Source of the DNA: a bacterium
GTDB taxonomy: Bacteria > Desulfobacterota > Binatia > HRBIN30 > CADEER01
Assembly (NCBI GenBank): GCA_031401035.1
Contig: JANNRA010000116.1
Location: forward strand, 1-46,941
DNA: 46,941 nt
Direction of reading: 5' to 3'
The number at the start of each line of letters is the position of its first letter. Within the stretch, counting starts at the first letter, position 1. Position numbers and translations under genes: made by a program. Positions 1 to 39,254 of the stretch are shown here, in pieces. Under the pieces are notes generated by a model that had not been told where the DNA came from, did not search any database, and saw only the letters and a list, made by a program, of their open reading frames with translations.

Positions 1-130
1 GGGGGGCGTGGGGGGCCCCGCCGGGGGGGGGCCCCCGGGGGGGGGGGGGGGTTGTGGGGGGTTAACGCCACCCCCCCCCGGGCTGGGCGCGGCCCCCCCC
101 CCAACGTCCCCATCCGAGACGCTTCCCCGG
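1..130. repeat. G/C homopolymer-rich low-complexity tract at contig start (poly-G and poly-C runs); probable assembly/sequencing artefact
   Basis: Runs of 10-17 G or C read directly in the sequence; a similar G-rich tract sits at the other contig end (46895..46941). Confidence 0.6.
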
Positions 131-135
131 TTGAC

Positions 136-1524
136 ATGCCCCCGGGGCGGCGGATTCTCTATTCCTCCGTGCCCTCCGTCGATCCCGCTCGCGACGCACT
201 CGTCCGCGCCGCCGTCGTCCGCGCCCGCCGCAGTCCCTTCTACGCGGCGCACCTCGCCGGACACAGCGACGATCTCGCCGCCCTGCCGCTGACCACCAAG
301 TCACACCTACGCGACGCGACGCCGTTCGGCATGCTGGCCGTGCCGCCACACCGCGCCTGGCACTACCACGAGACCAGCGGCACCGCCGGCGAGCCGATCT
401 CGACCTGGTGCGGCCTGACGGAACTGCGCGCCATGGCATCCATCGTCCAGCGCAGCGTGCCCGAGCTGGCGCAGGACACCATCCTCCTCAACCGCTTTCC
501 CCTCTTCGCGCCGGTCTCGTTCGTCTTCGAGGAGGCGCTGCGCGCCGCCAACGCCTGCCACATCGCCGCCGGGACGATGAGCTGGGACGTGCCGTTCGAG
601 CGCGCCGTCGACTTCATCCAGCGCCTCGGGGTGACCGCGGTCGCCAGCCTGCCGCTCGAGCCGATACTGCTGCACGACGTCGCCAAGGACCGCGGGCTGG
701 ATCCGCGCCAGGTCTTCCGCACCGTGCGCGTCGTCTTCTGCGGCGGCGCCATCCTGCCGCCGGCGCTGCGCCGCGCCATCGAGACCGACTGGGACGCGCG
801 CGTGGTCGAGATCTACGGGTCGAACGAGACCATGCTGATGGGCGTCGGCTGCCGGCGCGGCCGCCTGCACCTGTGCGACGAGCTGCTCGAGTTCGAAGTG
901 CTCGAGCCGCGCACACTGCAGCCCGTCGCGCCGGGTGCGCGCGGCGTCCTGACGGTCACCAGCCTGGTGCACGAGGTCATGCCGCTGGTGCGCTACGTCA
1001 CCGGCGACCTGGTGCGTATCGATCCGGTCGGCTGCGCCTGCGGTCAGGCCGGTCCGGTGGCGGAGGTGTACGGCCGCGCCGACGACGCGATCGAGATCGG
1101 CGGCGCCCAGACGACGTCCTACGAGGTGCTCGACGCCGCCTACGCCGCCGCCGATGGGCTCGGTACGCGCATCTTCTTTGCGCTGGTGCGACGCCGCACG
1201 TTGCATCTGCTGATGGAGGTGCCCGATCCCGGCCGCCACGATGCCCAACTGGCGGGCCGCCTGGCGGCCCAGCTCGGCGTGCCGGTGGTGGTCGAATTTC
1301 TCGCCCGCAACGAGGTCCTCGACCGCTCCGCCCTCTACCGCGGCCCGAAAATCTACAAGCCGTCCGTGCTCAGCGACTGGCGCGGCGCCGGCCGCAAGCC
1401 GATCACCATCATGGAAGCCCTGCTCGAGTGGCCGAAGTACGACCCCCGTACGCTGCTGCACCTGGCGCGACGGCAGTTCCGCAGTAGTCGACGGCGGGCG
1501 CGGATTCTCAAGGAAGACCGGTGA
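136..1524 (+). CDS. Adenylate-forming enzyme, phenylacetate-CoA ligase / CapK / coenzyme F390 synthetase-like
   Basis: ATG at 136 is the first in-frame start after the homopolymer junk. The product carries a HYHETSGTAGEPIS AMP-binding-like motif and overall PaaK-family architecture. It is translationally coupled to the next gene (GTGA overlap at 1521-1524). Confidence 0.7.
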   Translation: MPPGRRILYSSVPSVDPARDALVRAAVVRARRSPFYAAHLAGHSDDLAALPLTTKSHLRDATPFGMLAVPPHRAWHYHETSGTAGEPISTWCGLTELRAMASIVQRSVPELAQDTILLNRFPLFAPVSFVFEEALRAANACHIAAGTMSWDVPFERAVDFIQRLGVTAVASLPLEPILLHDVAKDRGLDPRQVFRTVRVVFCGGAILPPALRRAIETDWDARVVEIYGSNETMLMGVGCRRGRLHLCDELLEFEVLEPRTLQPVAPGARGVLTVTSLVHEVMPLVRYVTGDLVRIDPVGCACGQAGPVAEVYGRADDAIEIGGAQTTSYEVLDAAYAAADGLGTRIFFALVRRRTLHLLMEVPDPGRHDAQLAGRLAAQLGVPVVVEFLARNEVLDRSALYRGPKIYKPSVLSDWRGAGRKPITIMEALLEWPKYDPRTLLHLARRQFRSSRRRARILKEDR

Positions 1525-2450
1525 TCGTGGCGGATGTGTCGCCCGGCGACCCGCCGCCACTGCACGCAGGAGTTGAATCGCTGTTGGTGGTGGCCAACCC
1601 CAGCCGCATGCCGGCCGGCTTCGACGCGGCGGGGGCGCTGCGGCGGACGCGCGGTGACGGCGGCGATGTCGAACGCATCGTCGGATGGCTGCGCGCGGGG
1701 AGCCAGCATCTGGTCGTCGCGGCGGGCGGCGACGGCACCGCGCGCGCCGTCGCCGCGGCCCTGATGACGCTGCCGGCCGGCGAACGGCCGGCGCTCGGGC
1801 TGCTGCCGCTCGGCACCGCCAACAACCTGGCCCGCTCGCTCGGCCTGCGCCGCGTGCGCCGCGACGCGACGGCGTTGACGGTGGCGCTGGCGGCGCTGCG
1901 CCGCGGCAGGCTGCGGCCGCTCGACCTCGGCTGCGTCAACGGCGCCTGGTTCGTCGGATCCTGCGCCGCCGGCATGGACGGCGCCATCCTCGCCACGCGC
2001 AACCGCTGGCGCGCCCGCTGGAGGCTGCGCGGCGGCTATCCGCTGTATCTGGCCAGTTGCGCGGCGAACCTGCTGCGGCATCGCCCGGCGACACTCGCCC
2101 TGTCGCTCGACGGCGGCGCCGCCGCGTTTGTGCCGGCGCACAATCTCCTCGTCCTCAACACCGCACTGTACGCCGGCGAGTTCCGCTTCGACACCCGCGA
2201 CCGCAGCGCCGACGCACGGCTCGACCTGCTCGTCGCGGCGTCGGCACCCGCCTACGTCCGCGACTTCGTCAGCGCCTGGGGACGCCAGCTCGGCGTGCCA
2301 GTCGGCGCCGCCGACCTGCGCCCGTTCAGCACGGCGCGGATCGAAGCGGAGGCGCCACTGGCGCTGCAGGTGGACGGCGAGGAATTCGCCCCGACGCGCC
2401 TGCTCGAGGTACGCCTCGAGCCAGCCGCCCTGAGCGTGGTCGTCCCCTGA
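1521..2450 (+). CDS. Diacylglycerol-kinase catalytic-domain lipid kinase (YegS/BmrU family)
   Basis: DAGK_cat signature VVAAGGDGTARAV and LGTANNLARSLGL; GTG start overlaps the upstream stop codon. Confidence 0.7.
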   Translation: MIVADVSPGDPPPLHAGVESLLVVANPSRMPAGFDAAGALRRTRGDGGDVERIVGWLRAGSQHLVVAAGGDGTARAVAAALMTLPAGERPALGLLPLGTANNLARSLGLRRVRRDATALTVALAALRRGRLRPLDLGCVNGAWFVGSCAAGMDGAILATRNRWRARWRLRGGYPLYLASCAANLLRHRPATLALSLDGGAAAFVPAHNLLVLNTALYAGEFRFDTRDRSADARLDLLVAASAPAYVRDFVSAWGRQLGVPVGAADLRPFSTARIEAEAPLALQVDGEEFAPTRLLEVRLEPAALSVVVP

Positions 2451-2470
2451 GGGCGGGCGGGTCCGGATCT

Positions 2471-2556
2471 GCATCCCCTCACCCTGACCCTCTCCCTGCG
2501 GGAGAGGGGACCTTGTCGCATGCATGGGTCCCCTCTGCCGCAGGGTGAGGGGATGC
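2471..2556. repeat. Palindromic intergenic repeat element (REP/MITE-like), family copy 1
   Basis: gcatcccctcaccctg...cagggtgaggggatgc outer inverted repeat with an inner ccctctccctgcgggagagggg hairpin; about 50 bp near-identical to the copy at 10541..10585. Confidence 0.75.
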
Positions 2557-2613
2557 AGACAGGTTCCCAGCCCGCCCTTCGAATGCCCCGCCGCCCATAC
2601 TACGCTCTCTGCC

Positions 2614-3852
2614 ATGTCGTCTCGTGCGTTCCTCACCGGCTGCGGCGCCGTGTCGCCGTTCGGCGCCGGTGTCGAGAGCCTGTGGACGGCGCTCTGCGCC
2701 GGGCGCTCGGCCGTCGCGCCGCTGCGCGGCATCGTCGTCGACGGCCTCGGCGGCGTGCTGGCCGCCGAGGTACCGCCCGAGGCGGTCGCCGACGACGGGC
2801 GCGAACGCATCGACCGCTTTGCCCACGCCGCGGCGCTCGAGGCGCTACGCGACGCCGGATTGCGGCTCGCCGACTGCGACCGCACCCGCGTCGCGGTGGT
2901 CGTCGGCACGACGCTCGGCGCCATGCCGATCGGCGAGCGCTATCTGCGCGCCCGGCACGCCGGCGCGCCGTTCGCGGCGCGGCGGCTGCTCGGCCACCCC
3001 TACGCGGCGACGGCCACCAATCTCGCCCGCGCCCTCGGCACGCGCGGGCCGGTGCTCAGTCCGTCGATCGCCTGTGCCTCGGGCACGCACGCGCTCGGCC
3101 TGGCGCGCGACTTGATCCTCCACGACCACGCCGACGTGGTCCTCGCCGGCGGCGCCGAGGCACTGTGCGAGTTCGTGTTCGCCGGCTTCGCCTGCCTGCG
3201 CGCCACGACCGCGACGGCAGTGCGCCCCTTCGACGCGCGCCGCGACGGCCTGGCGCTGGGCGAGGGGGCGGCGCTGCTGGTGGTCGAGTCGGAGGCGCAC
3301 GCGCGCCGCCGCGGCGCGCCGCTGCAGGCGGAGATCGCCGGCAGCGGCCTGTCGTCCGACGCGGTGCACATGACCGCGCCGGCGCGCGACGGCGCCGGTG
3401 CCGCCCGCGCCATGCGCGCGGCACTCGCCGAGGCGGGCCTGACGGCGGACGCCGTCGACGTCGTCAGCGCGCACGGCACCGCGACAGTGTTCAACGACGC
3501 GATGGAGATGGCGGCCCTGGACGCCGTCTTCGGCACGGAACGCCGCGTCCCGGTCAGCGGCATCAAGGGCGCCATCGGCCACACCCTCGCCGCCGCCGGC
3601 GCCTTCGAGGCCATCCTCTGCGCCCGTATCCTACGCGACGGCGTCGTGCCGCCGACCGTCGGCTGCGACGAGGTCGACCCGACCTGCCGGCTCGACCTCG
3701 TGCGCGGCACGGCGCGGCGGGTCGCGGCGCGCGTCGTCTTGTCCACGTCGTCGGCGTTCGCCGGCAACAACGCGGCCCTGGTGCTGCGCGCCGTCGCGCC
3801 GTTCCCCGCGCCTGTCCGTCACCCGCAGGGGGAAACGGAAGCGAGGCCGTGA
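2614..3852 (+). CDS. Beta-ketoacyl synthase (KS; FabF/KS-alpha-like) with intact Cys-His-His triad
   Basis: Motifs IACASGTHALG, SAHGTATVFND and KGAIGHTLAAAG; start trimmed from the track ORF to the internal ATG (MSSRAFLTGCGAVSPFG). Confidence 0.85.
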   Translation: MSSRAFLTGCGAVSPFGAGVESLWTALCAGRSAVAPLRGIVVDGLGGVLAAEVPPEAVADDGRERIDRFAHAAALEALRDAGLRLADCDRTRVAVVVGTTLGAMPIGERYLRARHAGAPFAARRLLGHPYAATATNLARALGTRGPVLSPSIACASGTHALGLARDLILHDHADVVLAGGAEALCEFVFAGFACLRATTATAVRPFDARRDGLALGEGAALLVVESEAHARRRGAPLQAEIAGSGLSSDAVHMTAPARDGAGAARAMRAALAEAGLTADAVDVVSAHGTATVFNDAMEMAALDAVFGTERRVPVSGIKGAIGHTLAAAGAFEAILCARILRDGVVPPTVGCDEVDPTCRLDLVRGTARRVAARVVLSTSSAFAGNNAALVLRAVAPFPAPVRHPQGETEARP

Positions 3853-4928
3853 TGCGCGCCGTCGTGGTCACCGGCTTCGGTATTGTCTCGCCGCTCGGGC
3901 ACTCGCTGCAAGAGCTTGCGCGGCGGGTGGCGGCGGGAGAGCAGGCGGCGACGACGGCGGACGGCAGCGTCATCGCGTCGATCCCGCTCGATGTCGTTCC
4001 GGCGACGGCGCGGACGCGCATCGGCCGGCTCGATCGCCTCTGCCGCCTGGCGCTGGCAGCGTCCTACCTGGCGCTGGACGACGCCGCCGTGACCCTGCCG
4101 CTGGCGGTGCCGGAGCGCGTCGGGCTCGCCTTCGGCAGCGGACTCGGCTGCCTGCTCAGCAACGCCGAGTTCTACGCCAAGGTCGTCGCCCAGGGCGCTG
4201 CCGCGGCCAGTCCGCGCGCCTTCGCCTACACCGTCTCCAGCGCCGCCGCCGGGGAGGTGTCGATCGCGCTCGGCCTGCACGGCCCCAACACCACTCTGCA
4301 TATGGGCCTCGCCGCCGGCGTCGCGGCGCTCGGCTACGCCATGGACCTGGTCGGCAGCGGCCGCGCCGATATGGTCCTGGCCGGCGGCGTCGATGCGCTC
4401 GACGCGCCGCTCGCCGCGGCGCTGCGCGACATGGAGCTGTTCAAGACGCCGGCGCAGGCGCGGCCCTTCGTCGACGCGGTGGCCGGCCTGTGGCCGTCCG
4501 AGGGCGCCGCCATCGCCGTCGTCGAGAGCGCCGCCCACGCCGCGGCGCGCGGCGCCCGCGTGCGCGCCCGCCTGCTGGCACACGCGGCCGGCTTCGAACC
4601 GACGTTGAGCGGACGCGTGCCGCTGGCCGACGGCGTCGCCGCGACGCTGCGCCGTACCCTCGCCGGGCAGCCGATCCCGGCGCTGGTGCTGGCCAGCGCG
4701 CACGGCACGCCGCTCGACGCAATCGAACGCGCCGCGCTGCAGGAAGTAGGGCTCGGCGCCGTACCGATCGTCGCACCCAAGGCCTGCCTCGGCGACGCCT
4801 TCGCCGCCAGCGGCGCCTTTGCGGCGGCGCTCGCCAGCGCCGGTGGCCCGACGCCGGCGCTGATCAGCGCCCTGTGCCCATCCGGCAGCATCGCCGCGCT
4901 GCTCGTCGAGGCCTGCGCTCCCGCCTGA
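3852..4928 (+). CDS. KS-beta / chain-length-factor-like ketosynthase homolog lacking the catalytic Cys and both His
   Basis: TGATG stop/start overlap with the upstream KS. KS fold signature (VVVTGFGIVSPLG) is present, but the active-site position reads HMGLAAG and the His motifs are replaced (KACLGD). Confidence 0.75.
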   Translation: MRAVVVTGFGIVSPLGHSLQELARRVAAGEQAATTADGSVIASIPLDVVPATARTRIGRLDRLCRLALAASYLALDDAAVTLPLAVPERVGLAFGSGLGCLLSNAEFYAKVVAQGAAAASPRAFAYTVSSAAAGEVSIALGLHGPNTTLHMGLAAGVAALGYAMDLVGSGRADMVLAGGVDALDAPLAAALRDMELFKTPAQARPFVDAVAGLWPSEGAAIAVVESAAHAAARGARVRARLLAHAAGFEPTLSGRVPLADGVAATLRRTLAGQPIPALVLASAHGTPLDAIERAALQEVGLGAVPIVAPKACLGDAFAASGAFAAALASAGGPTPALISALCPSGSIAALLVEACAPA

Positions 4929-5079
4929 TGGGCGGCGCCCTCCAGGAAAATCACACCCCGGGTGGATTCGAGGTCGGGAACTGGATGCGCCCGCGGCGGC
5001 GCCGCGTTCGGGGTGCAACGGCGGACTGCATCGGGACTCGGGTTCCAGCCCGCGTCGGCGGCGTGCTAGCTCCCGGCCC

Positions 5080-5847
5080 ATGTCCGCACTCCCCGATCCG
5101 CTGCGCCTCGACGGCAAGCGGGCGCTGATCACTGGGGCCTCGCGCGGCATCGGGCGCGCGACGGCCGAGGCGCTCGCCGCCGCCGGCGCGGCGGTGGCGA
5201 TCAACTACGCACGCTCCGCCGACGAGGCGGAGGCGGTGGCCGCCGCCCTGCGCGCCGCCGGCGCCGAGGTCGAAGTGGTGCAGGCCGACGTCGCCGACCC
5301 CGCACAGGTCGAGGCGATGTTCGCATCTCTGAAGGCGCGCTGGGACGGCGTCGACATCGTCGTCAACAATGCCGCCATCTCGCGCGACGGCTTCGTCATG
5401 CTCACCAGCCCGGCGACGTGGGACGAGGTCGTGGCGGTCAACCTGCGCGGCCCCTTCCTGTGTGCGCGCGCGGCGCTGCGGCCAATGATCCGGCGGCGCT
5501 GGGGGCGCATCGTCAACATCATCTCGCCGGCCGCCCTGCTCGGTCAGGACGGCGCCGCCGCCTACGCCGCCACCAAGGGCGGCCTGCTCAGTTTCACCCG
5601 CTCGCTGGCGCGGGAGGTCGGCCGCTACGGCATCACCGTCAATGCCGTCTGCCCCGGCCTGGTCGAGACGCGCCTCATCGCCGGCATGCCCGCCGCCGTG
5701 CGCGAGCGCCACCTGCAGGCCATCCCCCTCGGCCGCTTTGGCGCACCGGACGAGATCGCCCACGCCGTCCGCTTCCTCGCCTCCCCCGCCGCCTCGTACG
5801 TCAGCGGCGCCCTGCTCGCCGTCGACGGCGGCCTGACCATGACGTGA
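5080..5847 (+). CDS. fabG: 3-oxoacyl-ACP reductase (SDR family, FabG-like)
   Basis: TGASRGIGRA Rossmann motif, NNAAI, and the YAATKGG catalytic Tyr/Lys. Confidence 0.85.
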   Translation: MSALPDPLRLDGKRALITGASRGIGRATAEALAAAGAAVAINYARSADEAEAVAAALRAAGAEVEVVQADVADPAQVEAMFASLKARWDGVDIVVNNAAISRDGFVMLTSPATWDEVVAVNLRGPFLCARAALRPMIRRRWGRIVNIISPAALLGQDGAAAYAATKGGLLSFTRSLAREVGRYGITVNAVCPGLVETRLIAGMPAAVRERHLQAIPLGRFGAPDEIAHAVRFLASPAASYVSGALLAVDGGLTMT

Positions 5848-5857
5848 AGAAGACACC

Positions 5858-5920
5858 TCACACGGAGACACGGAGGAACGGAGGTATCCGTACCCTCTCC
5901 GTGTCTCCGTCCTCCGTGTG
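5858..5920 (+). promoter_or_regulatory. Long GC-rich stem-loop between fabG and the downstream KS (candidate intra-operon terminator/attenuator or mRNA processing/stability element)
   Basis: acggagacacggag (5862-5875) pairs with ctccgtgtctccgt (5897-5910), with further nested complementarity (acgga/tccgt); no U-tract. Confidence 0.45.
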
Positions 5921-5938
5921 GAATAGTCGTTCGCTTCC

Positions 5939-7150
5939 ATGACCCGCATCGCCATCACCGGCCTCGGCAGCATCAACGCGCTTGGCGTCGGCGTCGCGGC
6001 GTTCGATGCCGGATTGCGCGCCGGGCGCTGCGGCATCGGGCCGCTGACGCGCTTCGCCGCTGACGGTTACCGTGTCGCCTGCGCGGCGGAAGCGCCGCCG
6101 CCGCCGCGCCTACCGGGAGTATCAGCGCGGGCGGCGCGGCGCTGGTCGTTGACGACGCGCCTGGCGCTGGCGGCGGCGGACGAGGCGTGGCGCGCTGCCG
6201 GTCTGGCGGACGGCGCCGCCTGCGGCGTCGTGCTCGGCACCACCACCGGCGGCATGGCCGGCGGCGAGGAGAGCTATCGACTGGAAGCGATCGGGGCGGA
6301 GGAACGCACCGCGTTGGCGAGCTGGCTCGAAACGCCGGTGGCGGTGCCGACCGACACCGTCGCGACGCTGATCGGCAGTCGTGGGCCGCGCCTGACGGTG
6401 TCGACGGCATGCTCCGCGGGCGCCAACGCCCTCGGTATCGGCGCCGATTGGATTCGCGCCGGGCGCGCCGCGGTCGTGCTGTGCGGCGGCGCCGAATCGC
6501 TGTGCCGCATGACGTATTCCGGCTTCAACAGCCTGCAGGCCCTCGACCGAGTGCCCTGCCGGCCGTTCGACCGCCAGCGCGCCGGACTGTCGCTCGGCGA
6601 GGGTGCGGCGCTGTTCGTGTTGGAGGACTGGAGCGCCGCGACGGCGCGCGGGGCGCGCATCCTCGGCGAGTTGCTCGGGTACGGCGTCAGTGCCGACGCC
6701 TATCACCTCACCCAGCCGCGCCCGGACGGCGCCGGCGCCGTGCTCGCCATGCGACGCGCCCTCGCGGATGCCGGCGTCGCGGCGGCGGCGATCGACTACG
6801 TCAACGCGCACGGCACCGGCACGCCGCTCAACGACGTCGCCGAGACGCGCGCGATCAAGGCCGTGCTCGGCGCCCGGGCGACGGCGGTGCCGGTGTCGTC
6901 GACCAAGTCGCAGGTCGGCCACTGTCTCGCCGCCGCCGGCGCCATCGAGGCGCTGGCGGCGCTGCTGGCGGCGCGCGGCGGCTTCGTGCCGGCGACCGTG
7001 ACGCTGCGCGACGCGGACCCGGAGTGCGACCTCGACTACGTGCCCGGACACAGTCGCGCCGCCGCGCTGCGCACGGTTCTGTCGAACTCGTACGGCTTCG
7101 GCGGCAACAACACGAGCCTCGTCCTGCGGGCGCCGGAGGCCGGCGCGTGA
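5939..7150 (+). CDS. Beta-ketoacyl synthase (KS, FabF-like) with intact triad
   Basis: Motifs STACSAGANALG, NAHGTGTPLND and KSQVGHCLAAAG. Confidence 0.85.
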   Translation: MTRIAITGLGSINALGVGVAAFDAGLRAGRCGIGPLTRFAADGYRVACAAEAPPPPRLPGVSARAARRWSLTTRLALAAADEAWRAAGLADGAACGVVLGTTTGGMAGGEESYRLEAIGAEERTALASWLETPVAVPTDTVATLIGSRGPRLTVSTACSAGANALGIGADWIRAGRAAVVLCGGAESLCRMTYSGFNSLQALDRVPCRPFDRQRAGLSLGEGAALFVLEDWSAATARGARILGELLGYGVSADAYHLTQPRPDGAGAVLAMRRALADAGVAAAAIDYVNAHGTGTPLNDVAETRAIKAVLGARATAVPVSSTKSQVGHCLAAAGAIEALAALLAARGGFVPATVTLRDADPECDLDYVPGHSRAAALRTVLSNSYGFGGNNTSLVLRAPEAGA

Positions 7151-8346
7151 GCGACCCGGTAGCGGTCACCGGCGTCGGCATCGTCAGTCCGATCGGCATC
7201 GGCGCGCGCCAGTTCTGGCAGGCCCTCGCCGCCGGCCGCTCCGGCATCGCGCCGGCGGCGGGGCTGGCCGGGCCCGACGGGCTGCCGACGCTCGCCGCCG
7301 CGGTGGGCGACTTCGCGGCGCGCGAGTTCATCACCTCGAGCCACTATCGGCGCATGGATCCGTTGTCGCGCATGGTGGTCGCCGCCTGCCGCATGGCCCT
7401 GGACGACGCCGACGCCGGCCCCGACCTCGACGTCGCGCGCACCGGCATCGTCGTCGGCTCCGCCATCGGCAATGCCTCGGAGTCGGCACAACACCTCGAC
7501 CGGCTGTTTCTGAAGGGGCCGGCGGCGGTGAGTCCGATGCTCTTTCCCAACCTGGTGCTCAACGCGCCGGCGAGCTACGCGGCGATGGAGTTCGGCTTCA
7601 CCGGCGTCAACTTCACCGTCGCGCAGGCGGAGATCTCCGGCGAGACGGCGATCGCGCTCGGCGTCGATGCGGTGCGCAGCGGCCGCGCCGACCGGGTGCT
7701 CGCCGGCGGCGGCGACGACCTGGCGCCGATCCTGCTCCGCACCCTGCATCGCAGCCGCGCCCTCGCCGGCCAGCGCGGCGGGCGCGAGTGGGCAAGCCCC
7801 TACGACGTGGCGCGCAGCGGTCTGGTGGCCGGTGCGGGCGCGGCGATGCTGGCCCTCGAACCGCTCGCCCGCGCCCGCCGCCGCGGCGCCCCGGTGTACG
7901 CCTGCATCGTCGGCAGCACCGCCTGGGCGGTGCCGGCGCCGCCGTACGGCTGGCCGTCGCGCGCCCCGGCGTCGCTGGCGCCGCTCGCGGCGCTGTGCGG
8001 TGCCGCGCCGATCGACCTCGTCTGCGGCGGCGCCAACTCGACCACGACGCTCGACGCCTGCGAGTTGGCGCTGTTCGACGCGCTCGCGCCGGTGCGCGGC
8101 GCGACCCTGACGTCGATCAAGGGCGCCATCGGCGAGTTCGGAGCCGCCGGGGCGCTGACCGTCGCCGCCGCCTGCCTGGCATTGCGCGAACAAGTCGTGC
8201 CGCCGCTCTGCGCGCTGGAGAGCGCGGCGCCGACCGGGCTGCGCCTGGCGGCACGACAGGCGCAGCCGGCGTGTCTGCGCCGCGCCCTCGTGCACGGCCT
8301 CGCCCGCGGTGGCGCGGCGGCGGCGCTGCTGCTGGAAGTGGCCTGA
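7147..8346 (+). CDS. KS-beta / chain-length-factor-like protein with Gln in place of the catalytic Cys
   Basis: GTGA stop/start overlap with the upstream KS; VAQAEISG at the active-site position and KGAIGEFGAAG replacing the His motif; the upstream 960 nt of track ORF 6187..8346 is out-of-frame Arg-rich junk. Confidence 0.75.
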   Translation: MSDPVAVTGVGIVSPIGIGARQFWQALAAGRSGIAPAAGLAGPDGLPTLAAAVGDFAAREFITSSHYRRMDPLSRMVVAACRMALDDADAGPDLDVARTGIVVGSAIGNASESAQHLDRLFLKGPAAVSPMLFPNLVLNAPASYAAMEFGFTGVNFTVAQAEISGETAIALGVDAVRSGRADRVLAGGGDDLAPILLRTLHRSRALAGQRGGREWASPYDVARSGLVAGAGAAMLALEPLARARRRGAPVYACIVGSTAWAVPAPPYGWPSRAPASLAPLAALCGAAPIDLVCGGANSTTTLDACELALFDALAPVRGATLTSIKGAIGEFGAAGALTVAAACLALREQVVPPLCALESAAPTGLRLAARQAQPACLRRALVHGLARGGAAAALLLEVA

Positions 8347-8403
8347 ATCGCCCCCGATTCCCGCTTGCGCCGCCGATTGGCCAGGGGTGGTGGTCCGATG
8401 CAA

Positions 8404-8428
8404 GAGGCGCGGACGGGGCCGCGCCCTC
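8404..8428. terminator. Hairpin between convergent genes (candidate bidirectional terminator)
   Basis: gcgcgg acgggg ccgcgc stem-loop in the 93-bp gap between the KS-beta stop (8346) and the minus-strand radical SAM stop (8440). Confidence 0.35.
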
Positions 8429-8439
8429 CAGCTCGGAGT

Positions 8440-9597
8440 TTAGGCTGGCGGCGGGAGGTAGTTCTCGATCGCCTCGCCCGGCCGCAGGTGGTCCGCCAGC
8501 ACCGCCTCGAAGGGGCGCTGATCGAGGACCTCGAACTGGCTGGCGTCGAGGGGGAAACGCGCGCCGTCCGCGGTATACGGCGCCACCGCCGCCGAACCGG
8601 CCGACAACACGGTCACCAGCGGCACCAACAACCGCTGCATCGCAGCCGGCTCACGCGTCGTCAGGACGATCTTCGCCTCGGGCAGGCCGCACGACAGGAT
8701 CGACACCAGGCGGATGAACGTCGCGTCGTCGGCGCCGCGCTGGTTGGCACGGCCGGCGATCTGACGCAGGCGCGGCACCGACAGATAGACCTCCATGCCA
8801 GCGTCGAGCAGGTGGCGGGCATGCAGAGCGAGGGCGACGAGCTCGAAGCCGAGGTCGGGGTTGAGGCCGACCAGGATGCCGGGGTTGGCGACGCGCAGGC
8901 CGGCGGCGCGGGCGCGATCGAAGTTGCCCAGGCGGCGGTCGTAGTCGGCGCGCGGATTGCCGGCCGCGGTGCCCATGAAGCGCGCGTAGTGGGGCCGCGA
9001 GTAGGTTTCCTGGAAAGTGCACATGGTCAGCTTGGCGGCGACGGCGCCGTCGGGTCGGCGAGCGAGGGCGTCGAGCAGCAGCGGATACTCGTCGGCGTCG
9101 AGCGAGCCGACGTTGATCAGTACGTGCCGGAAGGCGCGCGCCTGCGTCGCGTGCAACGCTTGGTTCACCTGCGCCAGCACCGGCGCGCGCCGCTCGGCGC
9201 GGTACTCGCCGGTGAGCAGCGCGACGCCGTACATGCCGCGCCGGCGCAGGACATCGAGCTGGTCCGCGATGGTCGCGGCGTCGACCGTCGTGCGGCGCAG
9301 CGCCGCGTTGTCATGGCGCATACCGCACATCCGGCACTCGGCGTCGCAGGTATTGGTCAGGTACAGCGGCGAGAAGGTCTCCAGGCGTGTCGGTCGGTGG
9401 GTGCGCGCGGCACGGGCCAGGGCGTACAGCGCGTCGGCGTCGAGCGGCGCCGTCCACAAGATCGCCAGGTCGTCGACGGCGAGGGGCGCGCCGGCGCGGG
9501 CGCGGCAGACGACCTCGTGACGAACCGCCGTCGGCGCCGCGGCGGCGGCGCGCAGGCGGGCGCTGACGTCGCTCGCGGCGAGGCGGAAGTGCATCAT
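8440..9597 (-). CDS. Radical SAM enzyme of the ThiH/HydG/BioB-like subfamily
   Basis: YLTNTCDAECRMC (CxxxCxxC preceded by Y-x-T/S-N-x-C as in the ThiH/HydE/BioB group); 385 aa. Confidence 0.7.
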   Translation of the reverse strand: MMHFRLAASDVSARLRAAAAAPTAVRHEVVCRARAGAPLAVDDLAILWTAPLDADALYALARAARTHRPTRLETFSPLYLTNTCDAECRMCGMRHDNAALRRTTVDAATIADQLDVLRRRGMYGVALLTGEYRAERRAPVLAQVNQALHATQARAFRHVLINVGSLDADEYPLLLDALARRPDGAVAAKLTMCTFQETYSRPHYARFMGTAAGNPRADYDRRLGNFDRARAAGLRVANPGILVGLNPDLGFELVALALHARHLLDAGMEVYLSVPRLRQIAGRANQRGADDATFIRLVSILSCGLPEAKIVLTTREPAAMQRLLVPLVTVLSAGSAAVAPYTADGARFPLDASQFEVLDQRPFEAVLADHLRPGEAIENYLPPPA

Positions 9598-9726
9598 GTG
9601 GTGCCCTCGCTAACCTTCGCCAGGGAGTCGGTCAACGTGTCGCGCGGCCATTTCGGGCCGCCCCCTCGGTCGCGCCTGTTGGCGCGCTCGGCTAGGCTCC
9701 GCCGCGTGCCCGCGCCCAGTCACGCC

Positions 9727-10521
9727 ATGTCGGTCGATGTCGAGGACTGGTTTCACGACGGCGGCCTGGCGCCGGCCGCGCCGACAGCGCACCGGGTCGA
9801 ACGCAACACCGACGCGCTGCTGGAGCTGTTCGCCGCCGCCGGCGCGCGGGCGACGTTCTTCGTCCTCGGCGACGTCGCCGCCCGTCACCCGCAGCTGATC
9901 GGCCGCATCGCCGCCGGCGGGCACGAGATCGCCAGTCACGGCTACGCGCACCAGCACCTGACGCGCCAGCTGTGGCGCGAGTTCCGCGCCGACGTCGAAC
10001 GCGCCCGCCTGCTGCTCGAGGACCGCGTCGGCGCCGCGGTGCGCGGCTACCGGGCGCCCTATTTCGCCATCCAGGCCGGCGTGCGCTGGCCGATCGAGCA
10101 GATCGCCGCGGCCGGCTACGGCTACGACTCCAGCCTGCTGCCGATGGGCCGCCCGCCGGGACTCGAGCTGGTCTGCCCGCGCGCCCCGTACCGCCATCAC
10201 AATGGCCTCTGGGAGGTACCGGTGGCGGTGCTGCAACTGGGGCGCTTCTGGCATCTGCCGCTGGCGAGCGGCTGGGGCCTGCGTCTGATGCCGCCGCGCC
10301 TGCTGCGACGCGGGCTGGCGCGCTTCGAGCGCGACGTCGGGTCGGGCGTATTCTATCTGCACCCGTGGGAGCTCGATGCCGATTCGCCGTGCGGGCCGGG
10401 TCCCTGGCGCTGGGCGCTGCGCGTCGGCCGCGGCCGGCTGGCGGAGCGCCTCGCGGCGCTGCTGGGCGAGCGGACGTTCGTGCCGATCCGCGACGTGTTT
10501 CCGGAGACGCAGGGCGGATGA
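9727..10521 (+). CDS. Polysaccharide deacetylase, CE4/NodB fold, PEP-CTERM-locus-type subfamily
   Basis: N-terminal MSVDVEDWFH and GHEIASHGYAH motifs; the upstream part of track ORF 8365..10521 overlaps the opposite-strand radical SAM and is rejected. Confidence 0.75.
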   Translation: MSVDVEDWFHDGGLAPAAPTAHRVERNTDALLELFAAAGARATFFVLGDVAARHPQLIGRIAAGGHEIASHGYAHQHLTRQLWREFRADVERARLLLEDRVGAAVRGYRAPYFAIQAGVRWPIEQIAAAGYGYDSSLLPMGRPPGLELVCPRAPYRHHNGLWEVPVAVLQLGRFWHLPLASGWGLRLMPPRLLRRGLARFERDVGSGVFYLHPWELDADSPCGPGPWRWALRVGRGRLAERLAALLGERTFVPIRDVFPETQGG

Positions 10522-10648: not shown

Positions 10649-11647
10649 ATGAAGGCCGCACTCCCGCTGCTCGTCGGCGGCGCGCTGTGTGCGCTGCTGC
10701 TCTGGTGGTTCGGCGTCGACGGCGTCGTCGCGGCGCTGCGCCAGGCGCGCCCGCTCGGGCTGGCGTGGTACGCGATCCTCTCCGCCCTCGTCCTCCTCCT
10801 GCTCGCCGTCCGCTGGCGGCTCGTCGCGCGGGCCCTCGGCGGCGCACCGCCGCTGGCGCGGCTGGCCGCGGCGCGTCTCGCCGGCGACGCGGTCGGCGCG
10901 CTGCTGCCGCTGACGCGCCTGGGCGGCGACCCCCTGCGTGCCGTCCTGGTGCGCGGCGCGGCGCCGTCGCTGGCGGCGGCCGGCGCCGGCGTCGCCATCG
11001 ACCGCCTGCTCGAGCTGATCGGCAACATGGTCGCCGCCATCGCCTATGTCACCGTCTTCGCGCTGACCCGCGCCGACGCCGCCACCCCGGCGCCGCGGTC
11101 GCTGGGCATCGCCATGGCGGTGCTGCTCGTGGTGCTCGCCGTACAACTGCTCGCCCTGGCGCGCGGCCACCGACCGTTGGCGCCGCTGTATGGCGCCCGC
11201 GTTCGGCGCCTGGCGCCGCGCCTGACGCCGTGGTTCGACGGACTGCGGCGCGTCGAGGACCATCTGCAGACCTTCTTCCAAGCCCACCGGCGCGCCTTCG
11301 TCGCCGGTCTCGCCTGCGCCGTCGGTACCGAGCTGCTGATCATCGCCCAGTACCACGCCCTGCTCGCCGCCTTCGGCATCGCCCTCGACCTGCCGGTGCT
11401 GTTGCTGGTCCTGCTCGGCGGCGGCCTGGCGCGCGCCGTGCCGCTGCCGGCCGGGCTCGGTGCGCTCGAAGCGGCGCAGGTCCTCGTCGTCGGCGCCAGC
11501 ACCGGCCGCGCCGATCTCGGTTTCGTCGTCGGTGTGCTGGTGCGCCTGCACGAGACGCTGCTGTTGCTCATCGGACTGGCGGCGCTGGCGTGGTGCGGGG
11601 CGTCGCCGATGCGACAGGCGGCCGTGGCGCGCGAGGCCAGCCGGTGA
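10649..11647 (+). CDS. Flippase-like / lysylphosphatidylglycerol-synthase-TM-region-like integral membrane protein (UPF0104 family)
   Basis: 8-10 predicted TM helices and a GDxxRxxLxRG-like motif (LTRLGGDPLRAV); start taken at MKAALPLL from the track frame. Confidence 0.6.
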   Translation: MKAALPLLVGGALCALLLWWFGVDGVVAALRQARPLGLAWYAILSALVLLLLAVRWRLVARALGGAPPLARLAAARLAGDAVGALLPLTRLGGDPLRAVLVRGAAPSLAAAGAGVAIDRLLELIGNMVAAIAYVTVFALTRADAATPAPRSLGIAMAVLLVVLAVQLLALARGHRPLAPLYGARVRRLAPRLTPWFDGLRRVEDHLQTFFQAHRRAFVAGLACAVGTELLIIAQYHALLAAFGIALDLPVLLLVLLGGGLARAVPLPAGLGALEAAQVLVVGASTGRADLGFVVGVLVRLHETLLLLIGLAALAWCGASPMRQAAVAREASR

Positions 11648-12198
11648 CCTCGGTCCTGCTCAGCATCGTCTTCGCGCTCGGCTGGCTGCCGCTGTTCGCC
11701 TTCCGCGCCGAAACCCTGACCGCGGCGTTGCCGCACTACTCCGCCGCCGAGCGCCTCTCGGTCTATGTCGCGCCACTGACCGTCGCCCTGCACGTCACGC
11801 TCGCCTGCCTGCTGGTGACGCAGGAGACGCCGCTGCCGCCGCTGCGCACGACGGCGGCGCTGGCGCTGTTCGCCGCCGCCCTCGCTTTCTGGTTCCGCGC
11901 CCGGGCGCAGATCGGTCCGCTGCGCAAGCGGCCGCTGCCCGACGAGCCGCCGCCGGTGCTGCGCCGCGACGGCCCCTTCGGCCTGGTGCGCAACCCGCTG
12001 TACCTGGCCTACCTCGGCGCCGCCGCCGCGCCGGCGCTGGTCGCGGCGCGGCCGCTCCTGCTGTTCACCTGGCTCATCTGCCTCGCGGCCCTGAGCGTCC
12101 GCGCGGCTCAGGAAGAAGGCCGCCTGCACGCCCAGCTCGGCCCCACCTACGCCGCCTACTGCCGCGAGGTGAAGCGCCTCATCCCCTTCGTGTGGTAG
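11644..12198 (+). CDS. Membrane methyltransferase of the ICMT/PEMT (isoprenylcysteine carboxyl / phospholipid methyltransferase) family
   Basis: GLVRNPLYLAY and C-terminal EEGRLHAQLGPTYAAYCREVKRLIPFVW motifs; GTGA overlap with the upstream gene. Confidence 0.65.
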   Translation: MTSVLLSIVFALGWLPLFAFRAETLTAALPHYSAAERLSVYVAPLTVALHVTLACLLVTQETPLPPLRTTAALALFAAALAFWFRARAQIGPLRKRPLPDEPPPVLRRDGPFGLVRNPLYLAYLGAAAAPALVAARPLLLFTWLICLAALSVRAAQEEGRLHAQLGPTYAAYCREVKRLIPFVW

Positions 12199-12209: not shown

Positions 12210-13685
12210 ATGACGAGCGCTGGGCGCACCATCGTATTCTGCGAGCCGCCCTACCTGTTCTGGGATCGCCGCCGTGATCGGCTGCGGCAGGGCGAAGAGA
12301 CCATCCCGGGTATGGGCGTGCTGATGCTCGCGGCGGTGGCACGGCGGCGCGGCTATCGCGTCCACCTGCTCGACGCCAAACCGCAGGGCACGGCGCTCGA
12401 CGAGGTCTGCGCGCGCATCATCGCCCTGCGGCCGGACTATCTCGGCTTGTCGGCGACGACCATCTCGGTCACCAACGCGGCGCGTATCGCGGCGCGCGTC
12501 AAGGCGGCGCTGCCGGGGGTGGTGACGATCGTCGGCGGCGCCCATGTCAGCGCCATCCCCGAACGCACGCTCGACGCCTTCCCGAGTCTCGACTACGCCG
12601 TCGCCGGCGAGGGCGAGGTGGCGCTGTTCGCGTTGCTCGAGCACCTCGAACGCGGCGCGCCGCTCGACGACGTCGCCGGCGCCGTCTGGCGCCGCGACGG
12701 TCGCGCGGTGGCCAACCCGCGCGCGCCGTATATCGACGACCTCGACGCGCTGCCGGTGCCGGCCTGGGACCTGCTGCCCGACTTCCCGCACCGCTTTCAA
12801 CCCTCGCTGTTCAGCTATCCGCGCACGCCGGTGGCGACCCTGATCACCTCGCGCGGCTGCCCGTTCACCTGCGTCTTCTGCGACCGCTCGACCTCCGGTC
12901 GCAAGGGGCGCCTGCACGGCGTCGAGACCGTCGTCAGCCTGTGCGCCGACCTGGTCGGGCGCGGCGCGCGGCACATCATGTTCCTCGACGACCTGTTCAC
13001 CGTCCGCCAACGGCGCGTCGTCGAACTGTGCGAGGCGTTGCTTGCCGCCGACCTGCGCTTTTCGTGGAGCTGCAACAGCCACCCCAACCTGCTCGATCTG
13101 CCGACGCTGCGCCTGATGCAGCGCGCCGGCTGCTGGCAGATCGCCTACGGCATCGAGTCCGGCTCGCAGCGCGTGCTCGACACGGTCAAACGCGAGGTGC
13201 GCATCCCGCGCATGCGCGAGACGCTGCGCCTGACCCGCGCCGCCGGCATCCGCACCAAGGGCTACCTCATGCTCGGCCACCCGACCGAAACGCGCGAGAG
13301 TCTGGCCGAGACGGAGGCCTTCCTGCGCGTCGCCGAGCTCGACCTGTGCCAGATCACCAAGTTCACGCCCTACCCCGGCACACCGGCGTACCCGACCATC
13401 GCTCAGCACGGCGCCTTCAGCGAGGACTGGGAACGCATGAACGCCATGCAGTTCGTCTTCGTGCCGCACGGTCTGACGGTGGGTGAGCTCGAGCGCGCCT
13501 TCGACCGCTGCTACCGCACTTTCTACAGCCGCACGGACGTCCTCTGGGGCATGGCGAAGCTGATGGTCGGCGAGCCGCGCTTCATCGGCCGCATGGCCAG
13601 CTCGGCGGCGGTGTACCTCGGGGCGAAGCTGGCCGAGCCGGCGGCGCGGGCGGAGGCCCTGACAGGCTCGCCGGGCCTGAGGTGA
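12210..13685 (+). CDS. B12-binding-domain radical SAM enzyme (class B)
   Basis: N-terminal B12-binding Rossmann region followed by TSRGCPFTCVFCD (CxxxCxxC); 491 aa. Confidence 0.8.
   Translation: MTSAGRTIVFCEPPYLFWDRRRDRLRQGEETIPGMGVLMLAAVARRRGYRVHLLDAKPQGTALDEVCARIIALRPDYLGLSATTISVTNAARIAARVKAALPGVVTIVGGAHVSAIPERTLDAFPSLDYAVAGEGEVALFALLEHLERGAPLDDVAGAVWRRDGRAVANPRAPYIDDLDALPVPAWDLLPDFPHRFQPSLFSYPRTPVATLITSRGCPFTCVFCDRSTSGRKGRLHGVETVVSLCADLVGRGARHIMFLDDLFTVRQRRVVELCEALLAADLRFSWSCNSHPNLLDLPTLRLMQRAGCWQIAYGIESGSQRVLDTVKREVRIPRMRETLRLTRAAGIRTKGYLMLGHPTETRESLAETEAFLRVAELDLCQITKFTPYPGTPAYPTIAQHGAFSEDWERMNAMQFVFVPHGLTVGELERAFDRCYRTFYSRTDVLWGMAKLMVGEPRFIGRMASSAAVYLGAKLAEPAARAEALTGSPGLR
13556..13630. 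repeat. Copy A of a ~75-bp dispersed repeat (3' end of the radical SAM gene), repeated at 14893..14967
   Basis: ctgatggtcggcgagccgcgcttcatcggccgcatggccagctcggcggcggtgtacctcg versus cgatggtcggcgagccgcgcttcgtcggccgcagggccagcgcggcggcggtgtacctcg. Confidence 0.7.
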
Positions 13686-14103: not shown

Positions 14104-14418
14104 GTGTTCAGGTTCGTCGAGACGGCGCTCTTCACTCGCCTCGTCGATGGGTACCTGTCTGACGATGACTACCTCAAGCTCCAAGTGGCGCTCGCAGAGA
14201 ATCCCGAGCGGGGATCGGTCATTCCCGGGTCCAGCGGGGTGCGGAAGCTGCGCTGGGCTGCGCCGGGTCGAGGCAAGCGCGGAGGATACCGCGTGATCTA
14301 CTACTTGCGGTCACATGCCGGAGCGATTTGGATGCTGACGATGTACCCGAAGAACGTCGCCAACAGCATCCCGGCGCATGTCCTGCGGAAGATACGAAGG
14401 GAGATCGACGATGCGTAA
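14104..14418 (+). CDS. Type II toxin, RelE/HigB-like family (toxin-first arrangement)
   Basis: KRGGYRVIYY...AIWMLTMYPKN motif typical of HigB/RelE-like toxins; sits in a local low-GC island. Confidence 0.7.
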   Translation: MFRFVETALFTRLVDGYLSDDDYLKLQVALAENPERGSVIPGSSGVRKLRWAAPGRGKRGGYRVIYYLRSHAGAIWMLTMYPKNVANSIPAHVLRKIRREIDDA

Positions 14419-14689
14419 GAGCGGGAGGCGAGATGTTGGCGCTGAGATCCTCGAAGGCCTTCGACAGCTGAAGCGCGGAGAAATCGGGCGGGTCACGACC
14501 TTGCCCAGGGTAGCCGAAACACGGGCACGGATGGGGCTGTCGCAGGCGGAGTTTGCTCGCCTACTCGGAGTCTCCGTTCGAACTCTACAGGAATGGGAGC
14601 AGGGTCGCCGCGCCCCCTCGGGACCAGCACGCACCCTCCTGATCATCGCCCACAAGAATCCCCAGGCGTTGCTTGAGGTGGCGGCCTAA
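14411..14689 (+). CDS. HTH (XRE-type) antitoxin, HigA-like
   Basis: ATG at 14411 overlaps the toxin stop by 8 nt (ATGCGTAA); LSQAEFARLLGVSVRTLQEWEQG helix-turn-helix. Confidence 0.65.
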   Translation: MRKSGRRDVGAEILEGLRQLKRGEIGRVTTLPRVAETRARMGLSQAEFARLLGVSVRTLQEWEQGRRAPSGPARTLLIIAHKNPQALLEVAA

Positions 14690-14892
14690 CCCGGCGGGCA
14701 CCCCGATCAGGAGTTCGTCGATTCGACCCTCGGCATCCTGCGGTGGGTTAAAGACGACGAGGCCTGGTCTGGGCGGTCTTGTTTCAGACGTGGGCGGGAT
14801 CGTCTTCTGATGACGACAGGACCGTCTTCTGGCGCGGGCATCCGTGCTCCGGCAGGTCGGTGTAACCGCCCCAGCCGTCGCTACGCACCGTG

Positions 14893-14967
14893 GAGCCGAT
14901 GGTCGGCGAGCCGCGCTTCGTCGGCCGCAGGGCCAGCGCGGCGGCGGTGTACCTCGCGGCGAAGGTG
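14893..14967. repeat. Copy B of the radical SAM 3'-end repeat (relic; no longer in a gene's reading frame)
   Basis: About 85% identical to 13556..13630. The repeat frame (phase of 14881, not covered by any track ORF) reads ...EPMVGEPRFVGRRASAAAVYLAAK..., mirroring the radical SAM C-terminus. Confidence 0.65.
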
Positions 14968-15118
14968 CGCTGGCGGGGCGGGGCGCGCGAGCCCGTGCCG
15001 GCGGCGCCGGCGCGGTGACCGGACGCGGACCGACGCCATTCTCCATGCCGGACCCAGCGTCTCAGACCCAGCGTCGCACGTTTGCGGCGTTACCGGCGCG
15101 GTGCTAGCGGCGTCGCCG

Positions 15119-18922: not shown

Positions 18923-18990
18923 CAGCGAGGCCGGATGCCCGCCCCGCACCGGGGTGTCATCGACGCGGCTGATCAGGCCGCCGCCGCCGG

Positions 18991-21793: not shown

Positions 21794-21909
21794 GCCCCGC
21801 ACGTTGCGGGGCGCTCTCCGCGCAGTCAATGCCCCCGCGGCGCAGCCGGCGCGGCCGGCCGCCGGCCGGCTACCTTGCCCGGCGCGACGGCGGCGCGGTA
21901 CGGTCGCGC

Positions 21910-24792: not shown

Positions 24793-24841
24793 CCTCGAGG
24801 CGGGCCCCGGTGGAACGCTGCTCCGTGCTGGCGCGGTTGCC

Positions 24842-31924: not shown

Positions 31925-32011
31925 CGGGCTAGCACAGCGAGCGCGGTGTGACACTCCGACGCAGGGCGACGGGCGGCGAACGGGCGGCGTCTCTCTGCTA
32001 CAGCTCTGCCG

Positions 32012-39244: not shown

Positions 39245-39254
39245 AGGGACGTGA

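Follow-up and report, generated by a model that had tools for sequence, protein, structure and literature searches.

A conserved gene unit with two ketosynthase/inactive partner pairs in a Binatia bacterium, a candidate pathway for a specialised envelope lipid

Introduction

Fatty acid synthesis gene clusters termed 'ladderane-like' have been reported for Kuenenia, Desulfotalea and Geobacter (Rattray et al., 2009; PMC2649909). In addition to radical S-adenosylmethionine (SAM) genes, these clusters contain FabF paralogues without Cys163, which is replaced by Glu or Val (Glu163 in the R. baltica paralogue), and those of Kuenenia and Desulfotalea also list a 'phenylacetyl-CoA ligase', a glycosyltransferase, a deacetylase-like gene and an odd methyltransferase. 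In anammox bacteria, amxFabF2 and amxFabFmut constitute a functional heterodimer resembling a ketosynthase (KS) and its chain length factor (CLF), and the pair primes itself by decarboxylating malonyl-acyl carrier protein (malonyl-ACP) (bioRxiv 10.64898/2026.05.19.726425, May 2026). Genome mining labels clusters as 'ladderane' or 'arylpolyene' in many phyla; 'ladderane' calls by antiSMASH extend to many non-anammox phyla, and the product is known for none of these (PMC9902471). Here, such clusters and the aryl polyene (APE) cluster of Escherichia coli CFT073 are compared with a locus on contig JANNRA010000116.1 (assembly GCA_031401035.1, lineage Binatia). The window analyzed comprises the entire contig of 46,941 nucleotides, and seven genes at positions 136-8346, all on the plus strand, are the focus of this work. 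A literature search found no description of a Binatia-type cluster of this make-up.

The seven genes encode an adenylating ligase (G1), a lipid kinase (G2), a ketosynthase with a catalytically dead partner (KS1/P1), a FabG-type ketoreductase (KR) and a second ketosynthase with its dead partner (KS2/P2). With a probability of about 0.6, and judging from sequence comparison and gene order, we take them to be the leading genes of a single conserved unit. The unit would produce a specialised envelope lipid, probably primed with an aromatic acid, and would combine the designs of APE and 'ladderane-type' clusters.

Ketosynthases and their inactive partners

The catalytic residues clearly distinguish two kinds of proteins. 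Cys-His-His-Lys is intact in KS1 and KS2, both in alignments to solved FabF structures and in a 112-sequence MAFFT alignment. The same alignments place Leu in the Cys position of P1, which has also lost the first His and retained the second, while in P2 the Cys position is taken by Glu and both His are lost (HMMER and MAFFT alignments). Glu162 of P2 is conserved in at least 90% of 26 homologues, and the pattern of an intact KS next to a dead partner was seen in every relative examined. A CLF-type Gln in P2 was considered and rejected, as it is Glu162 that aligns with the Cys, and Gln160 precedes this position by two residues (HMMER, MAFFT).

Among solved structures, KS1 is best matched by 9s5h_B (254.9 bits), marginally above FabFs (~247 bits), and P2 by 9s5h_C (156 bits), while KS2 scores 290 bits with FabF, 265 with 9s5h_B and 170 with ApeO. 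Actinorhodin KS/CLF, Iga11 and ApeO all remain below the best matches in this comparison. Molecule names, a Val at the Cys position and Planctomycetia-like relatives indicate that 9S5H probably belongs to the anammox amxFabF2/amxFabFmut work cited above. We calculated a neighbour-joining tree with 100 bootstraps that included ~75 housekeeping FabF sequences. KS1, KS2 and P1 each form a clade of their own (99, 98 and 100% bootstrap support, respectively), KS2 joins E. coli ApeO at 67%, and P1, P2 and ApeC come together at 87%. All four proteins fall outside the housekeeping FabF sequences, and the amxFabF clades are separate from them with support of 99-100%. The original prediction, made from the DNA alone, had proposed two pairs of KS and dead CLF; catalytic residues and tree bear this out. 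Its own counter-case, partners that turn out to be FabF duplicates with intact active sites, is excluded by the loss of catalytic Cys and His, and the phylogeny it called for groups the proteins with ApeO/ApeC and none of them within FabF.

The reductase encoded between the two pairs scores 231 bits with adh_short_C2, 266 bits with TIGR01830 and 220 bits with the FlxB model, and is 34% identical to ApeQ. In the more distant relatives L136 and L137 (positions 3151-5812), an aromatic ammonia-lyase gene is directly followed by P1 without a KS1 gene, so that a dead partner can exist lacking its customary active neighbour.

Extent and conservation of the unit

The unit covers positions 136-22644 plus 30956-32695 and, from end to end, spans ~32 kb, about fourfold the seven-gene stretch (Table 1). 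P2 has 316 homologues (E<=1e-10, among the candidates scored), nearly all of them metagenomic; identity is 56% or higher among the top 120. The hosts are uncultured soil bacteria, probably Binatia to judge from the names of homologues, as those with names stem mostly from Candidatus Binatia or 'Deltaproteobacteria bacterium' metagenome-assembled genomes. Gene contexts were taken from six look-ups and from 49 metagenome loci retrieved with a P2-specific sub-alignment; a profile scan with the full P2 alignment had been swamped by the generic FabF N-terminal pattern and returned a single true relative, L004.

Table 1. Genes of the unit in the window, with position, strand and the assignments on which the annotation is based
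Gene product	Position	Strand	Evidence
G1, PaaK/NatL2-type aryl-acid adenylating ligase	136-1524	+	Pfam AMP-binding, PaaK-like
G2, divergent DAGK_cat/YegS-family lipid kinase	1521-2450	+	Pfam DAGK_cat + YegS_C
KS1, active-type ketosynthase	2614-3852	+	full ketoacyl-synt N + C domains
P1, dead KS partner (CLF-like), C-terminally short	3849/3852-4928	+	ketoacyl-synt N domain only
KR, FabG-type 3-oxoacyl-ACP reductase (short-chain dehydrogenase/reductase, SDR)	5080-5847	+	adh_short_C2, TIGR01830
KS2, active-type ketosynthase	5939-7150	+	full ketoacyl-synt N + C domains
P2, dead KS partner (CLF-like)	7147-8346	+	ketoacyl-synt N + weak C domain
NosL-like radical-SAM aromatic amino-acid lyase	8440-9597	-	TIGR04158 239 bits (cutoff 400), ThiH 148
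Polysaccharide-deacetylase-family protein with DUF3473	9679-10521	+	Pfam; TIGR03006 210 bits (cutoff 276)
LPG_synthase_TM flippase-like membrane protein	10649-11647	+	PF03706; TIGR00374 60.9 bits (cutoff 43.2)
ICMT/PEMT-like membrane methyltransferase	11590-12198	+	NF040696 39 bits; weak PEMT match
B12a, cobalamin radical-SAM	12312-13685	+	B12-binding + Radical_SAM; best match HpnJ 187 bits (cutoff 578)
Vanadium-haloperoxidase-like protein	17369-19009	-	Pfam DUF6851/VCPO_2nd/PAP2
B12b, 'lipid biosynthesis B12-binding/radical SAM protein' (ladderane-type)	18991-20364	-	TIGR04072 396.6 bits (cutoff 360), full length
B12c, cobalamin radical-SAM	20441-21829	-	Pfam; best match BchE 101 bits
PlsC-family acyltransferase (ApeD counterpart)	21910-22644	+	Pfam Acyltransferase 109 bits; ApeD tblastn 27% identity
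LpxL-family acyltransferase (ApeJ C-terminal half)	30956-31954	-	Pfam Lip_A_acyltrans
Family 2 glycosyltransferase (GT2; ApeJ N-terminal half)	32012-32695	+	Pfam Glycos_transf_2

A core of KS1-P1-B12b-KR-(ACP)-KS2-P2 is common to ~50 related loci. Around it recur genes for the NosL-like protein, the deacetylase, the flippase-like and ICMT-like proteins, B12a, B12c, PlsC, LpxL and GT2, and the order in relatives is NosL-like, followed by the deacetylase/flippase-like/ICMT-like trio and B12a. Two architectures can be distinguished among these loci. In the compact type, the ACP gene sits between KR and KS2, a kinase gene upstream of KS1 is absent, a FabZ-like dehydratase is present, and P2 is followed by genes for LolA, the FabZ-like dehydratase, a LolB-like protein, an MMPL protein and the ligase. 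In the window type, by contrast, the ACP gene opens an export module located upstream, the kinase gene is present, the FabZ-like dehydratase is absent, and the gene downstream of P2 is the convergently transcribed one for the NosL-like protein. The FabZ-like dehydratase occurs in 16 loci (L004 and within L106-L137, e.g. L106 11491-11916) and the kinase in 11 contigs (the window, L088, L089, L086, L087, L096, L103, L104, L109, L110 and L117). They co-occur in none of these; only seven loci are informative for both positions, and the loci with the dehydratase and those with the kinase represent distinct lineages. In GCA_019637795.1 the unit is found in two parts ~500 kb apart on one contig. The special genes of the cluster are shared by none of 79 loci with housekeeping FabF, including the Brocadia locus L024, when the cluster proteins are compared by tblastn.

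Several of the downstream genes deserve comment. The deacetylase gene adjoins the flippase-like gene also in related loci, the start of the latter being uncertain (10376 or 10649), and the ICMT-like gene corresponds to a conserved 184-aa gene in relatives. B12a orthologues there are 71-91% identical. Those of B12b are 72-77% identical, and in 27 related loci they immediately precede KR; the copy in L001, at 72% identity, thus qualifies as an orthologue. B12c orthologues (76-86% identical) adjoin PlsC in L109, L116, L136 and L001. Together with the NosL-like gene these make four radical-SAM genes, which are part of the unit and tie it to 'ladderane-type' clusters. The LpxL-like acyltransferase and the GT2 that the original prediction had noted downstream are present. 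The haloperoxidase-like gene is conserved in L091 and L092 and presumably belongs to the unit as well. At the equivalent position, L001 (18080-19399), L086 (16247-17602) and L116 (16374-17726) carry a FAD-dependent Trp_halogenase-family gene. With B12 radical-SAM genes next to either, this looks like a non-homologous swap of the halogenating enzyme.

The collinear relative L088

Neither tblastn nor Pfam searches found an ACP, a hotdog dehydratase, a thioesterase, LolA or an MMPL protein anywhere in the window, in agreement with the original prediction, which had listed ACP, dehydratase, thioesterase and exporter as absent. L088, a 116-kb JGI contig that is collinear with the window (kinases 84% identical), encodes, in this order and directly upstream of G1, an ACP, LolA, a protein of 248 aa that weakly matches LolB, and an MMPL transporter. 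A divergently oriented gene for DAHP (3-deoxy-D-arabino-heptulosonate 7-phosphate) synthase lies beside the ACP gene. The ACP/export module directly upstream of G1 is also found in L089. The lack of ACP and exporter in the window is therefore most likely due to the end of the contig, i.e. an assembly break and not a biological absence. Positions 1 to ~115 are homopolymer-rich G/C junk, probably an assembly or sequencing artefact behind this break, and homology to L088, the nearest relative, sets in from position 126 onward. The dehydratase is a different matter: tblastn searches with ApeI, ApeP and the FabZ-like dehydratase of the relatives as queries came up empty for the window (E<=1) as well as for L088 and L089. 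The ApeK thioesterase likewise has no match in the window or L088 (tblastn).

Ligase, kinase and NosL-like lyase

G1 scores 172 bits with the NCBIfam model BagE_FevW and 107-110 bits with PaaK models, all under the cutoffs. Of the PDB entries, AjiA1 (164 bits) and NatL2 (156 bits) come before PaaK (80-94 bits). The nearest characterised relatives, i.e. AjiA1, NatL2, BagE/FevW and PaaK, are all aromatic-acid enzymes, and the aryl-acid-type adenylating enzyme of the original prediction is well supported by AjiA1 and NatL2 as best solved relatives. Orthologues of G1 are 63-67% identical in related loci and 93% in L091.

The lipid kinase family had likewise been recognised correctly: Pfam finds DAGK_cat (63 bits) and YegS_C in G2, which also carries GGDGT and DGE motifs. 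Scores range from 157-303 bits for about 100 homologue clusters and then fall sharply to 96 bits or less for generic YegS, and solved YegS itself reaches only 50.7 bits. By these scores, G2 is a member of what is predicted to be a distinct kinase subfamily. The kinase of diacylglycerol kinase (DAGK) type had been regarded as a non-standard member. For the present architecture this does not hold, as the gene is regular and conserved, residing immediately upstream of KS1 in 11 contigs.

The radical-SAM protein encoded downstream of P2 matches NosL/NocL in the PDB with 223 bits, HydG with 97 and ThiH with 79. It carries a CDAECRMC motif, and the Arg of its TTREP motif is the equivalent of SaNosL R323. 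Neither the one-residue insertion of ThiH-type proteins nor the marker Arg of tyrosine lyases (markers according to PMC9046217) is found in it. The gene recurs in 19 related loci, and in those of the compact type the ligase gene adjoins it. Aromatic ammonia-lyase genes reside inside the related loci L086, L087, L116 and L136.

Comparison with known cluster types

For APE clusters, E. coli CFT073 ApeA-ApeR (L090, 23728-38749) served as reference and was compared directly by tblastn. ApeO and ApeR match KS1/KS2 at 33-41% identity. ApeJ is a fusion protein: its residues 8-223 match the GT2 gene (32030-32659, 37% identity), and residues 360-549 the LpxL-like gene (31004-31549, 29% identity). ApeD weakly matches PlsC (27% identity), and ApeE and ApeM match the ACP and the MMPL protein of L088, respectively. 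ApeH, ApeC, ApeI, ApeP, ApeK, ApeN, ApeG, ApeB and ApeA gave zero matches, which for ApeH against the window refers to E<=1e-3. The locus shares with APE clusters an active KS with a dead CLF-like partner, a FabG-type KR, a counterpart of ApeD and, split into GT2 and LpxL-type acyltransferase, of ApeJ in the window. ACP, LolA, LolB-like protein and MMPL exporter are seen in the collinear L088. It deviates from them in that the window lacks the ApeI/ApeP dehydratases, ApeK, ApeB, ApeG and ApeA, has a ligase of the PaaK/NatL2 family instead of ApeH, and contains two KS/partner pairs with partners of 358-399 aa compared to 240 aa for ApeC. In addition, the window features four radical-SAM enzymes, a DAGK-type kinase, a deacetylase, and flippase-like, ICMT-like methyltransferase and haloperoxidase-like proteins. 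Of the aryl-polyene-like interpretation put forward originally, the likeness of the clusters stands (matches of ApeO, ApeR, ApeQ, ApeJ and ApeD; tree), whereas a polyene product does not fit the lack of a dehydratase.

The resemblance to anammox ladderane cluster I rests on the combination of a FabF-like KS with a FabF paralogue devoid of the triad, with 9s5h_B/C as best solved matches, and B12b exceeds the cutoff of the ladderane-type model TIGR04072. The PaaK-like ligase, the glycosyltransferase, the deacetylase-like gene and the odd methyltransferase moreover have parallels in the Kuenenia and Desulfotalea clusters. In contrast to anammox bacteria, the KS and partner clades are separate from amxFabF2/amxFabFmut, and the Cys position holds Glu (P2) or Leu (P1) instead of the Val or Thr of amxFabFmut. 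Neither a phytoene-dehydrogenase homologue nor amxFabZ was detected in the window (Pfam on the window genes; tblastn for dehydratases). APE-type anchoring genes, the NosL-like lyase and the kinase in the window and APE-type export genes in L088 set the unit further apart.

With flexirubin and probably also xanthomonadin clusters the unit has in common the aromatic ammonia-lyase (in relatives), a halogenating enzyme, KS genes, LpxL/GT2 and the MMPL exporter. The FabG-type KR also fits flexirubin, although its score with the FlxB model stays under the cutoff of 340 bits. FlxY, however, is matched with merely 82 bits (cutoff 520), and DarA/DarB are absent. Cyclase or aromatase domains were not found in the window (Pfam), unlike in actinorhodin-type type II polyketide synthase (PKS) clusters.

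A precedent for the proposed starter branch is nosiheptide biosynthesis, where NosI adenylates the indolic acid formed by NosL and NosJ serves as its carrier (PMC5585349). As in that pathway, a NosL-like protein that keeps the equivalent of R323 and the cluster motif is encoded in the same gene cluster as an ACP and an enzyme that adenylates aryl acids. The ligase of the window, on the other hand, is PaaK/NatL2-like, thiopeptide genes are absent, and downstream chemistry would consist of KS-driven chain extension and lipid anchoring.

Proposed function and alternative explanations

On the basis of homology and synteny for every step, the following pathway can be proposed. Starting from an aromatic amino acid, with tryptophan as the most likely substrate, the NosL-like lyase would form an aromatic carboxylic acid. 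G1 would adenylate this acid and load it onto the cluster ACP, whose gene presumably resides further upstream, past the contig end. The heterodimers KS1/P1 and KS2/P2 may then extend the chain with malonyl-ACP, and the FabG-type KR would reduce the beta-keto groups. Three cobalamin radical-SAM enzymes, the ICMT-like methyltransferase and the haloperoxidase-like enzyme are candidates for modification of chain or ring. PlsC, the LpxL-type acyltransferase and GT2 are predicted to link the chain to its anchor, either a glycerolipid or a glycolipid, a head group could be processed and translocated by the deacetylase and the flippase-like protein, and the DAGK-type kinase may phosphorylate a lipid hydroxyl. 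LolA, the LolB-like protein and the MMPL transporter, as seen in L088, would finally carry the product to the outer membrane. As a dehydratase or enoyl reductase dedicated to the pathway is missing from the window, a fully conjugated polyene is not expected. An aromatic starter is favoured by the relatives of G1, the NosL-like protein, the logic of nosiheptide biosynthesis, the adjacency of ligase and NosL-like genes, the aromatic ammonia-lyases and the DAHP synthase gene next to the ACP gene of L088.

A number of points weigh against this proposal. Support in the neighbour-joining tree is moderate, and the dead partners, which evolve fast, may have been drawn together by long-branch attraction. 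ACP, dehydratase, thioesterase and exporter are not in the window itself. G1 is not homologous to ApeH and could act at another step. The score of the NosL-like protein with TIGR04158 is lower than the equivalog cutoff, leaving its substrate and product uncertain, and some relatives carry both the NosL-like gene and an aromatic ammonia-lyase, which renders the identity of the starter ambiguous. Product, substrate and activity are throughout deduced by inference.

It is conceivable, if rather doubtful, that the unit instead makes a non-aryl 'ladderane-type' unusual fatty acid, in which case synthesis would be self-primed by decarboxylation of malonyl-ACP, the B12 radical-SAM enzymes would remodel an aliphatic chain, and ligase and NosL-like protein would work on a head group or in an unrelated reaction. 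The best structural matches of KS1 and P2 (9s5h_B and 9s5h_C) with their presumed anammox link, the true TIGR04072 membership of B12b, the gene list of Kuenenia and Desulfotalea with its 'phenylacetyl-CoA ligase' and Glu/Val FabF paralogues (PMC2649909) and the missing dehydratase, which speaks against a polyene, are all in line with this option. It is harder to reconcile with the grouping of KS2 and both partners with ApeO/ApeC and not with the amxFabF clades, with the absence of a phytoene-dehydrogenase homologue and an amxFabZ-type gene from the window, and with the conservation of NosL-like protein, PaaK/NatL2-like ligase, ammonia-lyases and DAHP synthase in the cluster or its relatives. 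The separation into two parts ~500 kb apart in GCA_019637795.1 and the gaps of 91-163 nt between sub-operons could also be taken to mean that two unrelated operons are neighbours here, one comprising the first four genes (G1-G4) and the other the last three (G5-G7) plus the downstream genes. We consider this improbable, since more than 20 loci have KS1-P1 immediately before B12b-KR-KS2-P2, both parts are kept in one genome even if split, and the compact architecture has ligase and exporter genes downstream of P2. Least credible are ordinary housekeeping fabF/fabG duplicates or an actinorhodin-type aromatic type II PKS. FabF models do give the highest generic scores for KS1 and KS2, yet with 332-375 bits these stay under the TIGR03150 cutoff of 494; the partners are without catalytic Cys and His, the four proteins stand outside the clade of ~75 FabFs, Act CLF matches the partners with merely 61-91 bits, with Glu or Leu in place of the Gln, and cyclase/aromatase domains were not found in the window. 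Judged by active sites and tree, the idea of housekeeping duplicates is refuted.

A more specific version of the aromatic-primed envelope lipid, unlikely in its entirety, would be an undescribed lipid class with a tryptophan-derived indolic primer (NosL-like protein to G1-type ligase to ACP), extension by two heterodimers and remodelling by three cobalamin radical-SAM enzymes including the TIGR04072 member, in which the DAGK-type kinase replaces the FabZ-like dehydratase through phosphorylation of a hydroxyl group followed by elimination or by retention of the phospho group. Such a replacement would explain why kinase and dehydratase never co-occur in the related loci.

In one conserved unit, a TIGR04072 cobalamin radical-SAM protein is joined with KS/dead KS pairs, APE-type anchoring and export genes and aromatic-acid enzymes. 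This offers a non-anammox setting in which the chemistry of the TIGR04072 family could be tested, and the combination of their elements suggests that aryl polyene and ladderane-type clusters share ancestry. If the aromatic-primed model is true, a distinct envelope lipid is to be expected in uncultured Binatia-like soil bacteria.

Gene models, insertions and further observations

With a GC content of ~74% in the window, most mechanically derived open reading frames (ORFs) are spurious. Third-position GC was used to choose frames and amounts to 0.87-0.92 in the called frames of the seven genes. Start/stop overlaps are confined to the pairs G1/G2 (GTGA), KS1/P1 (GTGATG) and KS2/P2 (GTGA), and spacers of 163, 151 and 91 nt separate the pairs and KR from each other. 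The run is therefore co-directional, as predicted originally, with translational coupling being only partial: it holds inside the three pairs and not across the gaps. The members of the run had been named correctly as well; FabG is, however, not the last of them, the KR gene lying between the two KS/partner pairs. A promoter and terminator scan of positions 1-10000 yielded nothing beyond shuffled expectation.

The suspicion that the cluster is fragmented by insertions and rearranged proved justified. An 8.3-kb block with a GC content of 63-69% (22717-30900) parts PlsC from LpxL/GT2, while L109 and L086 have B12c, PlsC, LpxL and GT2 side by side. The block encodes an SPFH protein, a BTAD-AAA-TPR regulator, a Calx-beta protein and Thr/Pro-rich repeats. 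A patch of 65.5% GC contains genes for a RelE/HigB-like toxin (14104-14418) and an HTH/Xre antitoxin (14378-14689) and is flanked by a 126-nt direct repeat (13549-13674 and 14885-15010, spacing 1336 nt) that constitutes the 3' end of the B12a gene. As the gap between B12a and the haloperoxidase-like gene is 1316 nt shorter in the closest relatives L091 and L092, the 1.3-kb toxin-antitoxin cassette is an insertion private to this contig. Rearrangement concerns the TIGR04072-type gene, B12b, which has been displaced in the window from the P1|KR junction that it occupies in 27 related loci. Besides the window, it is not located directly upstream of KR in L088/L091, L086 and L118.

Between kinase and KS1, positions 2470-2512 harbour an element resembling a repetitive extragenic palindrome (REP) (CCCTCTCCC..GGGAGAGGG with AGGGTGAGGG). 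The spacer containing it measures 163-167 nt, compared to 23 nt in L091. At 36125-36266 there is a related pair of hairpins whose arms are 89% complementary, and CGGGAGAGGG occurs twice (0.19 expected). A frame for an FG-GAP/ASPIC protein (14810-17344) is broken at 16799-16804 by an in-frame TGA with an ATG directly after it. The position of the TGA is identical in the 94%-identical L091, pointing at a conserved split or readthrough site and not at a private error. Four genes of the glutathione S-transferase (GST) family are clustered at 38150-45563, and within one ORF (43417-44868), five to six tandem units of 57 nt (19 aa each) at 43393-43734 lie N-terminal to the GST domains.

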